Assembly (NCBI GenBank): GCA_963815215.1
Contig: CAWFFU010000002.1
Coordinates: 1-43,412, forward strand
DNA from: an uncultured Trueperaceae bacterium
GTDB lineage: Bacteria > Deinococcota > Deinococci > Deinococcales > Trueperaceae
Direction: 5' to 3'
DNA: 43,412 bases
In this document: positions 32,320 through 36,823 of the stretch, in pieces
How the letters are laid out: each line of letters begins with the position of its first letter
How positions within the stretch are numbered: position 1 is the first letter of the stretch
Position numbers and translations under genes: made by a program
Notes under the pieces: generated by a model
What the model saw: only the letters and a program-made list of their open reading frames with translations
The model's database searches: none
Told to the model about the DNA's origin: nothing

Positions 32320-33339
32320 TCAGCGGCTGACCAGCAGCAGGAAGCGGTCCATCCAGCGGTCGGGCAGGAAGCGCGTCAGCACGCCCACCACGTGCGCGTC
32401 CAGCCCCACCCGATAACGCGTGCGCGCGCGCGGCGCGGTGAGCGCGTGCAGCACCGCACGCGCCACGCCGTCGGGCGCGATGCCGCCCGCATCGACGTCG
32501 GTCACGCCGCGGGAGATGGAGCGGATGGCGGCCTCGTAGAGCTCCCCCGCCGCTTCGGGCATGCGCGAAAGGCGCGCCTCGCCGGCGCCCTTCGTCTTGC
32601 CCCAGATGGGGGTGCGCACGCGGCCGGGCTCCACGATCGAGACCTGCAGGCCCCAGGGACTGAGCTCGAGCCGGTAGACGTCGCCGAGCGCCTCGATGGC
32701 GAACTTGGACGCCGCGTAGGCGCCCAGCAGCCGCGACGACACCAGCCCGGAGATGGATCCGACGAACACCACGCGACCGTGGCTTCCTCGGACCGGCGAG
32801 CGGCCGGCGCCCAGCGACCCGTCGATGCCGGCCGGAGCGGTCGATGCCCGCACCCCGAAGGCGCGGCGCTGCCCTTCCGCCGCCAGCTGGACCTCACGCG
32901 CCCGCCGCAGCATCGGCAGCATCGCCTGCGTCACCGCGACCTGGCCGAGCACGTTGACCTCGAGCTGAAGCCGCAGGTCCTCGAGCGGCAGGAACTCCAT
33001 GGGCCCCGCCACGACCATGCCGGCGTTGTTCACCACGCCGTGCAGGCCGCGCGCGCCGGTGCGCTCGTCGACGACGGCGGCCGCCCGCGCGATGCCCTCG
33101 GCGTCGGTGATGTCGAACAGCAGCGGCGTGATGCTACCGGTGGCGTCGTCCGGGGCTGCGTCCCGGCGCGCCTCCCGGCCTTCCTGCTCCAAGCACGCGG
33201 CGGACTCCTCGCGCCGCACGCCCGCGAAGACCTCGAAGCCGCGGCGAGCGAGCAGACCGGCGACCGCGCGACCGATCCCGGTCGACGCGCCGGTCACCAG
33301 AACGGCTGGCGGCGTGTCCCCCTCCGAAGCGACATGCAC
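32320..33339 (-). CDS. Short-chain dehydrogenase/reductase
   Basis: TGASTGIG, VNNAG, YAASK, VEPG. TAAGAT lies 6 nt before the GTG start. Confidence 0.93.
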   Translation of the reverse strand: MHVASEGDTPPAVLVTGASTGIGRAVAGLLARRGFEVFAGVRREESAACLEQEGREARRDAAPDDATGSITPLLFDITDAEGIARAAAVVDERTGARGLHGVVNNAGMVVAGPMEFLPLEDLRLQLEVNVLGQVAVTQAMLPMLRRAREVQLAAEGQRRAFGVRASTAPAGIDGSLGAGRSPVRGSHGRVVFVGSISGLVSSRLLGAYAASKFAIEALGDVYRLELSPWGLQVSIVEPGRVRTPIWGKTKGAGEARLSRMPEAAGELYEAAIRSISRGVTDVDAGGIAPDGVARAVLHALTAPRARTRYRVGLDAHVVGVLTRFLPDRWMDRFLLLVSR

Positions 33340-33408
33340 GCAGCCATCTTAACGGTGTCGGGTCGGCGACGTTCTCCGGGCCCGCGATCGCGCGGGGGAT
33401 CTCCTCCC

Positions 33409-33442
33409 AAAACGCAACCCGCGGGGAGGATTCCCCGCGGGT
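33409..33442 (-). terminator. Intrinsic terminator
   Basis: Perfect 11-bp stem ACCCGCGGGGA-ATCC-TCCCCGCGGGT followed by TGCGTTTT on the minus strand. Confidence 0.8.
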
Positions 33443-33636
33443 CACCGGCCGAAGGCCGTGAAGGAGAGAGTTGTGCTTCCGGAGCCCCAACGCCGGGACG
33501 GTCCCGGCTACAGCACGTTCACCCTAACTCGTTTGCCTCATTTGAGGCCCGGAAGCACGTGCACCGGCGTCTCGGCGCCATTTCAGTCCTTGTCGGTCTC
33601 GTGGAGCGGCCTACTCAGCGCCTGCCCACCGGTGCA
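33409..33636 (-). ncRNA. Putative ~230-nt structured non-coding RNA of unrecognised family
   Basis: TAGCAT -10 box at 33647-33642. Two adjacent closed domains (33636-33560 and 33558-33473) whose wobble pairs are G-U only on the minus strand. Then a CU-rich linker, a small hairpin and the terminator. No credible long ORF. Confidence 0.7.
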
Positions 33637-33732
33637 ACGTAATGCTAGGCGGCCGCATTGTCCGGTGACAGGGACACATGTCCTGCTGCACCCGGGACGG
33701 CCGGCACCGGGCCGGCTTGCGCTCGGTCCGGA

Positions 33733-33802
33733 GCGCTCAGCTCGGTGCGCTCAGCTCGCGGCGCTCAGCTCGGGGCGCTCAGCTCGGGGCGCTCAGCTCG
33801 CG
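33733..33802. repeat. 14-nt tandem repeat x5 covering the thioesterase stop codon
   Basis: GCGCTCAGCTCGnn at 33733, 33747, 33761, 33775 and 33789. Confidence 0.93.
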
Positions 33803-34233
33803 GGCGCCGACCCCGCCAACAGCGTGGACCGTACGGCGTCCGGCACCGGCACGGGCCGTTGCGCGTCGTAGTCGAACCAGACCACCACCGATTCGATGGT
33901 GGCCGCCCGTACCCCGTCGGCCCGCACCTCCTGGTGCAGGGCGATGCTGCTGCGCCCGATGCGCGCCACCTCGGTGGCGAGCACCACCCGGCTGCCCAGA
34001 CGCACCTGGGCGTGGAAGTCGATGGCGATGCGCGCCAGGATGGGGCCGCCGCCGTCCCAGCTCACACGCCGCATCAGGGCGATGCGGCCGAGCTCGGCGT
34101 AGCTGGAGTACGCCGCGTTGTTGACGTGCCCAAGCGCATCGGTATCGCCGAAGCGCACCTGGATCTCGAGTTCGTGTGGGCCCGGCGCGGCGACGTCGGG
34201 GGTGTGGCTGGCGGCGGGATCCTCCGGGGTCAT
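33793..34233 (-). CDS. Acyl-CoA thioesterase (4HBT/YbgC hot-dog family)
   Basis: VRFGDTDALGHVNNAAY, RIGRSS. GGGAGGAG RBS. Confidence 0.93.
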   Translation of the reverse strand: MTPEDPAASHTPDVAAPGPHELEIQVRFGDTDALGHVNNAAYSSYAELGRIALMRRVSWDGGGPILARIAIDFHAQVRLGSRVVLATEVARIGRSSIALHQEVRADGVRAATIESVVVWFDYDAQRPVPVPDAVRSTLLAGSAPAS

Positions 34234-34416
34234 CAGGCAGGCTCCTCCCGAAATGGGGTGGCCTCGGCGGACGGCGCCGCGGCGGACGTCAGCCTACCGC
34301 GCGCCGCGCCGGTACACGGCGCGCGCGGGGCGCCGTCCGTGTGGTGGCGGGCGCGGCACTCTGAGCGCTATCGTGGACGCACAGTACGCACCCATTTGCC
34401 CGCGATGGAGGGCAAC

Positions 34417-36823
34417 ATGCGGTTTCTGCGTGGTCTGCTCGTGCTCGTGTTGGTGGCCGCATCGGCCACGGCCTGCGCACCCGGTGTGGACGTGGGTTCC
34501 GTGCGTCTGCCCAGCGACGTTCCCGGCACCCTGTCCGATGCCGACGCCGTCCTGCTCGACCCGGTCGGCGCTCTCGTGGGGCGCGACCCGCCCCTGAGCA
34601 CCGACATCTACGACGCCACCTTCGACGCGCCCGAGCTCGACGGCTACACGCCCACCACGCCGGTGCCCTTGGAGGCGATGCCCCGCGCCTTCGACGGCAG
34701 CTACTACCTGGCGCCCGGCGACTACGAGATCACGGCCTGGGGGTTCTGCGCTCACGCCGGCACCTACGAGCCCGCCGTGGGGGGGCCGGGATACGTCTAT
34801 GCGCCGCTGAAGGGCTCGCTCGCGGATGTCATGACGCGCCTGCTCGAGGCCTCCTACCGCCACCCGGAGGTGTCGCAACGGTCCATCCAGGTCCTGTTGT
34901 GGGCCATCCTCGCGCGCACGCCGCTCCCCGACATGCCGCCCGAGTTGCAGGACACCTCGCGGCGCCTGCTCGACGCCGACGACCTCGCGCGCCTGCGTGC
35001 GAACACCCCCAACGACGTCGGTCGAACCCTGTTCGAGCGCGCCCTGCAGCAACTACCTCCCGAGCTCCGCGAGGTGGCCCGCGCCGAGGACCGCATCCGC
35101 ACGCTGCTCCGCGGCGACAGCGTCGCCTACGCGGCGCTCGAGCGAGCCGCCGTCCTCACGGGCAACCCACCTCCGGGCCTGACCGTGCGCGCCATCCCCC
35201 AGGGCCGGTGGTCACACCACCCCGACGGCTACGACATCCGATACGCGCCCTCCGGGTACTCGGTGGTGCGCATCCAGATCCACGTGCCCGGGGCCGTCGG
35301 CGCCCGGCCCGACCCGGGCGTGATCAGCGCCCAGGGCTCGAGCGGCTCCCAGGGCGGTGACGGCATGGTCAACGCCGACGTGAGCGACGGCGCGGCGCTG
35401 TCCGGCAACACCTCCCGGCAGCGGCTCCTGAGCAACGGCACGAGCGCCGACGACAACGTCCTCGAACGGGCCAAGGACGCGGTCGGGTGGATGAAGCTCT
35501 TCGCCAACCTGCTGCCGTTCTTCGGTGGCCAGAGCCTCGAGCAGGGGGCGGTCCAGGGCTTCTCGGAACTCACCGCGGGAGCCTCGATGCTCTCCCCCGC
35601 AGCGATGGCGGGGTACCTGCTGGACTTCATCTTCAGCGCCGGCGCCGACATCATCAACGCCACCGCCGGCTACGAGGGGGGCGGGACAGGGGGCGGGGCA
35701 GGGTCCGACAACCGGGGCCCGCCATCGACGGGTGGCTCCTCCTCGGCGGGCTCCAGCGGCTCCCCGACGTGGAACGCGCACCCAGGATCGTCCGGCGGGT
35801 CCGGTGCGGGCGACAGCGGGACGGCCGGCGGAACGAGCAGCGGTACGAGCAGCGGCACGAGCAGCGGCACGAGCGGCTACCAGGACGGTAGCAGCGGCGG
35901 CACGCGGCGCCAGCGGCGGCACCAGCGGCGCCGGCGACACCAGCACCGGCACCGGCACCGGCACCGCCGGCGATACGACCGGGGACACCGGCACCAGCGG
36001 CGACACCAGTGGCGAAACGACCGGCGAAACGACCGGCGACACGACCGGCGACACGAGCAGCGGCGCGTCCGATGCCGGCGGCACCGGGACGAGCGAGGCC
36101 GGGGCGAGCGAGACCGGGACGAGCGAGACCGGGGCGAGCGAGACCGGCACCGACGCGAGCGGCACCAGCGCCGGCGGCGGCACCACCGACAGCACCAACG
36201 ACGGCACGACCGACGGCACGACCGACGGCACGACCACCGCCCCGGGCGGCGCCAGTAGCGGCGCCGGCACGAGCGGCTCCAGCGGCGCGCTGACCTTCCC
36301 CGAGGGCCTCCCCGACGACCTGCGGCGGGCGGTCGAGTACCTCGTGACCACGGCCGGCGAGCTGTTGCGCGACCTGCAGCTCTACCAGGACTCCGCCGTG
36401 CGGCTCGACAGCGTCAGTCACGGTGACGCCGACGCGGGGTACGCGCTGGCCGCGCAGACGCTCGAACGCAAACGCAGCGCCGGAATCTCCATGTTGCGCA
36501 CCTCGGCTGCGCTCGACCACCTCGGAGCCGTGCTCGATGCGCATCACCTGGGCAGTATCCCGCTCGGGGCGGACGCGGTGCGGGCCTTCCAACAACGGCT
36601 GCGGGACGAGGGCGTCCCCGAGGCACTGCGCGCGGAGCTGCGTCGCGCGGGCATGACCGACGCCGACATCGATCGATTGGCCCGGCGCTACCTGGAGCTC
36701 GACGCCGACGAGGTTGCGGCCGGCTTCCGGCGCTCCCTGACCCGCACGGCCGCCGCCCTGCGCTCGCTGGGCACGATCTGGGCCGGCCTGCCCTCGATCC
36801 TGGCCGGCAGCACGGTCCACTGA
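34417..36823 (+). CDS. Putative ~800-aa lipoprotein (TED-like domain, Gly/Ser/Thr/Asp-rich stalk, helical C-domain) interrupted by a frameshift at ~35905
   Basis: GGAGG RBS, signal MRFLRGLLVLVLVAASATA|C. Motifs FCAH, IQVLLW, RQRLLS. The G/S/T-rich tract runs from the frame of ORF 33658..36258 into the frame of ORF 35525..36823 at ACG-C-GGC. Confidence 0.75.

Follow-up and report, generated by a model that had tools for sequence, protein, structure and literature searches.

Structure of the RNA gene

We analyzed a 43,412-nucleotide (nt) stretch of DNA from an uncultured Trueperaceae bacterium, referred to below as the window. Coordinates are those of the window, G000 is the genome that holds it, and L numbers denote the loci collected for comparison. 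A first-pass annotation of the window, made from its letters, had proposed an unannotated structured RNA on the minus strand. Comparison with homologous sequences confirmed positions 33636-33407 of the minus strand as a conserved, non-coding, two-domain RNA gene with its own predicted -10 box and terminator, lying between a thioesterase gene and an SDR-family oxidoreductase gene. The RNA would be about 230 nt long (33407..33636, minus strand), with its 5' end placed by the -10 box and its 3' end by the terminator. BLASTN found the region in a single copy in G000. The GC content is 0.64 over 33400-33699 and 0.74-0.76 in the flanks, in agreement with the lower GC content that had been remarked on earlier.

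The -10 hexamer TAGCAT (33642..33647, minus strand) was read in the sequence and is not accompanied by a -35 hexamer. Variant loci keep TANNNT at this place (TAGCCT, TATCCT, TACGAT and others), with a spacer that is not conserved. An operator-like palindrome, AGGAC-ATGT-GTCCC (33671..33684, minus strand), lies 23 nt upstream of the hexamer. A simple sigma-70 and terminator consensus scan, whose sigma-70 part requires both the -35 and the -10 hexamer, called neither the promoter nor the terminator of the RNA gene, which fits the missing -35 hexamer and an interrupted T run.

Domain 1 (33560..33636, minus strand) starts with an outer helix of 10 base pairs (bp), UGCACCGGUG/CGCCGGUGCA, in which 33636-33627 pairs with 33569-33560. 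The 4x4 internal loop GGCA/GAGA and the 6-bp helix GGCGCU/GGCGCC follow, and this helix closes a large loop, of which about 35 nt, GUAGGCCGCUCCACGAGACCGACAAGGAC, are nearly invariant, with single changes only among 12 sequences. Domain 2 (33473..33558, minus strand) begins one base past domain 1 and has a 17-bp stem with a single bulged U. This stem closes a junction made of GAGGCAA, a small hairpin with the loop AGGGUGAA and the hairpin GCCGGGA-N3-UCCCGGC; a competing hairpin, GCCUC-AAAU-GAGGC, was also found in the window sequence. Past domain 2 come a predicted single-stranded CU-rich stretch, AACUCUCUCCUUCAC (33458..33472, minus strand), complementary to purine-rich Shine-Dalgarno sequences, and a small hairpin, CGGCC-UUC-GGCCG (helix 8; 33446..33458, minus strand). 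The intrinsic terminator (33409..33445, minus strand) has a 14-bp stem (33445-33414), a loop of 4-5 nt and the U-rich tail UUGCGUUUU. The -10 box at 33647-33642, helix 1, the 4x4 loop, domain 2, the competing hairpin and the terminator were all found where the first-pass annotation had located them.

Conservation of the fold and coding potential

The ViennaRNA fold reproduced both domains of the RNA. The minimum free energy was -119.8 kcal/mol, compared with -102.1 +/- 5.8 kcal/mol for shuffled sequences (z = -3.06; 3 of 200 shuffles folded as well). We built a covariance model, R1, on 8 sequences, which scored the window RNA over its full length at 268 bits and gathered 12 distinct full-length homologues from genomes and metagenomes. 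The results showed that 96.8% of cells paired in the model structure, and that 17 of 68 pairs were changed on both sides, against 6.0 +/- 1.4 in 500 shuffles, none of which reached 17. When the 3' partners were slid by 1-3 columns, only 1-7 compensated pairs were left. The 12-sequence alignment was fitted to R1, which favors the structure; an independent MAFFT/RNAalifold alignment of 8 sequences gave 13 compensated pairs out of 68. Conservation and covariation in relatives, which had been named as a check on the RNA, were both found.

The compensated pairs were located in the outer helix of domain 1 (6/9), the long stem of domain 2 (4/17) and the terminator (5/14). In the terminator (helix 9), 98.8% of cells were paired across the 12 homologues, and in the 5 pairs of helix 8 the value was 98.3%, with one pair variable on one side. 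The loops were invariant over about 35 and 30 nt within the full-length homologues. In the upper stem of domain 2, CAA/UUG is replaced between types by CGU/ACG and other pairs, and U-G by U-A. These changes support the closed form of the stem. An alternative pairing of the stem GCCU with the junction AGGC is possible in 20 of 25 domain-2 sequences and leaves the terminator untouched; covariation cannot test this pairing because both partners are invariant.

The conservation could also stem from a protein gene on the plus strand or from a DNA-level element, with no RNA gene at the locus. An open reading frame (ORF) does exist on the plus strand at 33458-33871, a 132-amino-acid frame that opens with GTG behind the Shine-Dalgarno-like GAAGGAGAGAG, and the frame is open behind such a motif in 9 of 11 homologues. 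We rejected this ORF as a gene: among the 11 homologues the start codon is absent in L007 and L008 and a frameshift occurs in L010, the frame varies from 59 to 205 amino acids, the spacing between the Shine-Dalgarno-like motif and the start is 1-2 nt, and there is no Pfam match. The GC content at third codon positions is flat over 33325-33700 (0.54-0.76 in all phases), whereas the flanking genes reach at least 0.9 in one phase, and the substitutions in the stems are compensatory. We therefore give the absence of an RNA gene hardly any probability, and the stand-alone structured RNA of the first-pass annotation is upheld by the covariation, the flat codon-position GC content and the poor conservation of the antisense ORF.

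Gene context and the predicted downstream promoter

The SDR-family oxidoreductase gene (32320..33339, minus strand; Pfam adh_short, E = 8e-35) lies directly downstream of the RNA, and NCBIfam returned generic SDR models only for its protein. Directly upstream lies a 4HBT-fold thioesterase gene (33793..34233, minus strand; Pfam 4HBT_2, E = 2e-21). According to tblastn and Pfam, the order thioesterase, RNA, SDR and MFS transporter, all on one strand, recurs in all loci long enough to show it, although the flanking proteins fall to 44-56% identity. The SDR gene follows the RNA in every locus, with G019, which retains a remnant, as the sole exception.

A -10 hexamer of the SDR gene, TAAGAT (33346..33351, minus strand), is positioned 6 nt before the GTG start at 33339. 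The same arrangement of TANNNT, 6-7 nt and GTG, without a Shine-Dalgarno sequence, was found in nine plus three variant sequences, covering every lineage inspected. Leaderless mRNAs are common in Deinococcus. Because this arrangement is a leaderless signature, the SDR mRNA is predicted to be leaderless and to start from its own putative promoter, in line with the earlier claim that the SDR gene has its own -10 box. In G019 (L007 1790-2040), the SDR gene has decayed by an internal deletion to about 75 codons, with the N-terminal TGASTGIG fused to the C-terminal end, but the RNA beside it is intact (212 bits), the palindrome is kept and the MFS gene is still downstream. The separate -10 box and the intact RNA of G019 argue for separate transcription of the RNA and the SDR gene.

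Nevertheless, the locus could be organized as a cis-acting leader or attenuator. The palindrome promoter would then be a second, condition-specific promoter for the SDR and MFS genes, and the RNA would sense a signal and decide between termination and read-through, or its transcription would interfere with the SDR promoter. Such an arrangement would account for the order and orientation that all lineages retain in spite of the protein divergence, and for one lineage (L024, L032, L040 and L231) that lacks a terminator in the interval from domain 2 to the SDR promoter, where transcription must run into this promoter and the SDR gene. Aptamers typically contain large, invariant internal loops like those seen here, the GCCU:AGGC pairing offers an alternative state, and the MFS gene persists in G019. 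However, the SDR gene has its own -10 box in every lineage, and since its start is leaderless, read-through transcripts would present an internal GTG without a ribosome-binding site. No conserved antiterminator was seen by eye in the alignments of homologues, the terminator itself is conserved with compensated pairs, and the RNA stays intact in G019 where the SDR gene is decayed. We consider a cis-acting leader unlikely. One antiterminator candidate, the duplicated GCCGGUG of the window, was dropped after inspection by eye; it is lost in L005, whose outer helix differs.

EutX/Rli55 and SreA are riboswitch-containing small RNAs. Like terminator riboswitches, the Trueperaceae RNA combines conserved-junction folds with a following intrinsic terminator and lies upstream of co-oriented metabolic genes. 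Unlike them, it precedes an SDR gene with a predicted leaderless promoter of its own, and no antiterminator was found. The generic SDR, thioesterase and MFS neighbors suggest no ligand.

Distribution and variants

BLASTN detected the region in 9 of 61 related genomes including G000; besides G000, these are 6 of the 9 remaining genomes of its genus and members of two more genera, the latter with 79-81% identity. We then scanned one genome per species for the pattern of the domain-2 stem and inner hairpin and obtained 17 loci, 12 of which matched R1. The titles of these 12 name Trueperaceae, Truepera, Deinococcales, Deinococcaceae or Deinococcota; the others are unlabelled metagenome-assembled genomes (MAGs) and one Thiobacillus. 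Deinococcota, the group in which the first-pass annotation had advised a search, fits these titles. The remaining five loci (Nocardia, Streptomyces, Streptosporangiaceae, Acidimicrobiales and Longimicrobiaceae) had no model match and were set aside as chance matches. In a metagenome scan with the pattern, 70 of 80 loci examined, many of them human-gut contigs, had no model match and were rejected, and 34 further matches were left out.

The contig titled as an uncultured Thiobacillus MAG (L039) carries a thioesterase-RNA-SDR locus nearly identical to a Deinococcaceae-titled one, as compared with L037 and L024. This contig is probably mis-binned.

In three genomes of genus g37 and several of genus g12, only domain 2 matched R1. 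These variant loci have the same gene layout and a different domain 1 of 85-165 nt, which starts with RGCGG-WA-GGGGY; in one type its closing pair has changed from C-G to U-A, as judged by eye. The 3' tails of the variants differ as well, and the tail varies even within genus g37. We built a second model, R2, from domain 2 alone with 20 distinct sequences, and it matched all 25 collected loci. Across types, domain 2 consists of the long stem, the junction RAGGCMAA, a small variable hairpin and the hairpin GCCGGGA-N3-CCCGGC. Since R2 matches all loci while domain 1 and the tails vary, the sequence comparison identifies domain 2 as the family-wide core, and domain 1 and the 3' tail as the parts that differ between genera.

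In genome searches with Infernal's stricter filters, by which weak members may have been missed, R2 found the RNA in 19 of 128 genomes of the family Trueperaceae and 5 of 36 genera, in one copy each save in G003. By genus, the carriers were 5/9 in g1, 1/1 in g11, 1/1 in g25, 3/3 in g37 and 8/18 in g12. Under the same filters, R2 had no match in 94 genomes of four sister families.

G003 carries the whole thioesterase-RNA-SDR-MFS locus twice, at C10:34515-34770 and C3:34043-34285 (L002 and L010). One copy shows 100% identity to the window over 256 nt, against 90% for the second, which points to either a duplication or a mixed-strain assembly.

Comparison with known RNA families

Rfam 15 gave no match at gathering scores for the whole window or for seven variant loci. 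At E <= 10, the window returned only four weak matches, all on the terminator region, with 10-20 bits against cut-offs of 63-233, and a permissive scan of the variant with the largest domain 1 returned only three similarly weak matches. Short-motif resemblances to the T-box, the hammerhead and RNase P were weighed by eye and dropped, and no Rfam model scores them. A literature search found no publication on RNAs of Truepera. To our knowledge, few non-coding RNAs have been described for Deinococcota outside Deinococcus and Thermus. The RNA is well supported as a new family of narrow distribution that matches no catalogued RNA family; the first-pass annotation, too, had been unable to assign it to one.

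Ms1 RNA of Actinobacteria, which like 6S RNA binds RNA polymerase (core or holoenzyme), invites comparison. The Ms1 RNA of S. coelicolor is about 230 nt long and is an intergenic stand-alone gene beside an oxidoreductase gene. According to PMC9130861, Ms1 adjoins an HAD-IB hydrolase (or 'inhibition of morphological differentiation') gene and an oxidoreductase gene. Against the 5' end of S. coelicolor Ms1, as given in the supplement of PMC9130861, the domain-1 loop showed a 7-mer and a 6-mer match by eye. This match is probably due to chance, with a rough p of about 0.01 from one comparison, uncorrected. Four short window motifs did not occur in that supplement. Ms1 is a long hairpin with a central bubble according to PMC4191392, and identity with Ms1 or 6S RNA was rejected on the fold, since both single-sequence and consensus folds of the Trueperaceae RNA show two tandem domains. 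Identity with Ms1 was also rejected on neighbors and phylum: the RNA lies between a 4HBT thioesterase and an SDR gene in Deinococcota, and only the oxidoreductase side agrees.

Y RNAs (Deinococcus Yrn1 and YrlA) are structured non-coding RNAs of the same phylum that have a long stem with a bulge; such RNAs accompany a Ro (TROVE-domain) gene and are usually adjacent to it. The earlier annotation had named RNA polymerase and Ro/Rsr as candidate partners. A TROVE-domain (Ro) gene, PF05731, was not found in G000, which is 97% complete, and the Deinococcus radiodurans control was found; Ro/Rsr is therefore unlikely as a partner. Identity with a Y RNA was rejected because G000 has no Ro/TROVE gene, Rfam gave no match and there is no tRNA-like module.

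These comparisons bear on the idea that a stand-alone RNA sequesters or guides a protein, or senses a ligand, through its folds and without pairing to mRNA, as modeled on 6S, Ms1, CsrB, Y RNAs and riboswitch-containing small RNAs. What is conserved across genera is the domain-2 junction together with the beginning of domain 1, and no single-stranded tail, the loops are invariant over long stretches, and 6S RNA (RF00013) was not detected in G000, all of which would suit a partner-binding RNA. On the other hand, 6S and Ms1 differ in fold, being long hairpins with a central bubble (PMC4191392), no Ro/TROVE gene is present in G000, no partner gene is linked to the locus, and the CU-rich tail is clearly constrained in the window's lineage. 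Taken as a whole, partner binding without any mRNA pairing appears improbable.

Promoter palindrome and candidate regulon

The palindrome RGGAC-N4-GTCCC was present 22-25 nt upstream of TANNNT in 23 of 24 homologous loci, and its spacer was not conserved. Because 23 nt separate the palindrome from the -10 hexamer in the window, its center falls at about -42 relative to the predicted start, which we take to be the class-II position of FNR-type activators. For an FNR/DNR-type activator a site near -41.5 would be expected, and both the RNA loci and hemN show a spacing that is consistent with it. The same site was found upstream of leaderless hemN, at 22-24 nt from its -10 box, in G000, G006, G019, G033 and G070, which represent four genera; in G000 the -10 hexamer of hemN, TAGACT, lies 22 nt past the palindrome. 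The site upstream of hemN was absent in four more distant, lower-GC genomes and altered in two others.

The exact form GGGAC-N4-GTCCC occurs at 14 sites in G000, compared with a composition expectation of 16.8 and with 4 and 11 for two control patterns. Eleven of the 14 sites lie at a codon periodicity below 0.23, a value that only 16% of random positions reach, and the case for a regulon rests on the placement of the sites and not on their number, because the count in G000 is not above composition. In other carriers, the site outnumbered its backwards control (20 vs 2 in G019, 18 vs 5 in G033 and 12 vs 1 in G070). The genes behind the sites in G000 encode HemN, CtaA/COX15, a GlpA-like DAO+BFD oxidoreductase, a P-type ATPase, an SPFH protein, a DeoC aldolase and a lipoprotein.

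Most of the palindromes of G000 are in non-coding DNA, and many are found 20-24 nt upstream of a -10 hexamer and beside genes for heme synthesis, terminal oxidases and nitrogen-oxide respiration; examples are C13:4669, C10:303498, C3:1159010, C1:7562, C11:671276 and C8:217105. The same was seen in G019, G033 and G070.

We sampled 15 sites in other carriers and read their neighboring genes. These genes encode cytochrome bd subunit I, a pyridine-nucleotide oxidoreductase, cytochromes c, two molybdopterin oxidoreductases, MoaA, NosD, a P-type ATPase and a NirK-like multicopper protein, whose gene is divergent from that of an Rrf2 regulator. Some of the sampled sites had unrelated neighbors, namely genes for a Mur ligase, an epimerase and a solute-binding protein. 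According to PMC5748679, Thermus thermophilus promoters for nitrite and nitric oxide respiration contain a palindrome built on the same GAC-N4-GTC core; an NsrR-type protein binds this palindrome, and the DnrT footprint overlaps it. G000 itself encodes about ten CRP/FNR-type helix-turn-helix proteins. We propose GGGAC-N4-GTCCC as the putative operator through which a regulator of the low-oxygen or denitrification type would act in these Trueperaceae.

Proposed function of the RNA

We lean, at slightly better than even confidence, towards the reading that the RNA is a stand-alone, trans-acting structured small RNA belonging to a low-oxygen or denitrification-type regulon in a subclade of the Trueperaceae. 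A CRP/FNR-type or Rrf2/NsrR-type regulator would bind RGGAC-N4-GTCCC near -42 and switch on the -35-less promoter under oxygen limitation or during the respiration of nitrogen oxides. RNA polymerase would start at the first base of helix 1 and stop at the terminator, and the resulting transcript of about 230 nt would act in trans. In the window's lineage, the invariant single-stranded CUCUCUCCUUC may pair with purine-rich ribosome-binding sites and block translation as FnrS and RoxS do. This effector step is tentative, and we rate its probability somewhat below even. The two domains with their invariant loops may give stability or hold a protein or ligand partner.

FnrS of Escherichia coli and AniS of Neisseria are small RNAs activated by FNR, and RoxS/RsaE are found in Bacillus and Staphylococcus. 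Like FnrS, AniS and RoxS, the Trueperaceae RNA is a predicted stand-alone transcript with its own terminator and a C/U-rich strand complementary to ribosome-binding sites. Like the FNR-activated small RNAs, it has a 5-4-5 palindrome at class-II distance that it has in common with genes of anaerobic respiration. It differs in that there is no sequence or Rfam relationship, and also in size and complexity: at about twice their length, it folds into two elaborate domains whose internal loops are invariant. Its promoter has the half-site GGGAC instead of TTGAT, and its CU stretch is limited to three genera. By analogy, the Trueperaceae RNA would work most like the FNR-activated small RNAs, while being unrelated to them in sequence and far more elaborate.

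The CU-rich stretch is the candidate for contact with mRNA. The sequence CUCUCUCCUUCAC was invariant in all 12 full-length homologues, from three genera, while the neighboring stems vary. A scan of G000 for complements to an 11-mer, allowing at most 1 mismatch, returned 36 sites, 15 of them before an ORF, and the best complement in G000 was the pnp ribosome-binding site, over 14 nt. In five other carriers, exact 13-mer matches hit only the RNA gene itself. The only recurring targets were pnp and one DUF-like membrane protein, and they recurred only within the genus.

Across many genera of the family, the ribosome-binding site of pnp, downstream of rpsO, is identical or close to GAAGGAGAGAG (L185 2385-2410; L187-L216). 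It is an unusually long conserved purine tract.

Several observations weigh against a trans-acting RNA of a low-oxygen regulon. The CU-rich stretch is absent from other lineages and, as the tail also varies within g37, a family-wide seed is not evident. The pnp site is equally purine-rich in genera without the RNA, as a generic strong Shine-Dalgarno sequence would be, and because of this conservation the pnp match gives no specific support. No target recurs in two distant carrier genera. The count of 14 palindromes in G000 does not stand out above one control pattern of the two (11) or above the 16.8 expected from composition, the RNA carriers G020 and G114 (g12) have few sites (2 vs 4 and 4 vs 1 for the backwards control), and the palindrome may instead be bound by a repressor. 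For the RNA itself, transcript ends, abundance and induction are all inferred. The RNA is co-oriented with the SDR gene and directly upstream of it in every lineage, and this fixed adjacency, together with the one lineage that has no terminator, would be compatible with action in cis.

That the domain-2 junction is conserved throughout the family suggests a protein or ligand partner. As the main function of the RNA, partner binding seems rather unlikely, a little below mRNA pairing in our estimate, and the two roles can coexist. A more speculative suggestion, to which we give a low probability, is that the RNA is no conventional base-pairing small RNA but a complex-folded effector of an anaerobic or denitrification switch, in which the three-way junction of domain 2 binds either a small molecule or a protein (RNA polymerase, the ribosome or a respiratory regulator, for example). 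If so, a phylum without a recognizable 6S RNA would have a global RNA regulator of a new class, or a ligand-sensing RNA with a new fold.

With an unusually elaborate, strongly conserved fold and covariation support, this RNA family is a candidate for Rfam. Its general importance is limited by the narrow distribution, since in the genomes searched only 5 of the 36 genera of a single family carry it. The promoter would place the RNA in a regulon of heme synthesis, terminal oxidases and nitrogen-oxide respiration, which gives a testable condition for expression, and GGGAC-N4-GTCCC is a candidate operator motif for a low-oxygen regulator of mostly uncultured halotolerant bacteria. The operator-like palindrome, the lineage-specific domain 1 and CU-rich tail, and the fixed thioesterase-RNA-SDR order are new beyond the first-pass annotation.

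Other features of the loci

At about 34450-36800 on the plus strand, two stretches of the window have strong third-position GC periodicity, in the frames of the ORFs 33658-36258 and 35525-36823. These ORFs have no Pfam or NCBIfam match and probably are genes for proteins of unknown family.

A 14-nt tandem repeat (33729-33807; 5.6 copies, 92% matches) covers the thioesterase stop codon and the spacer that precedes the RNA promoter; it was absent from the homologous loci read. In L019 of G071 (g37), at about 1380-1470 on the minus strand, a unit of about 28 nt (GCGAGCGCACGGATG.ACCGAGCGAGCG) occurs three times in direct orientation past the RNA terminator.

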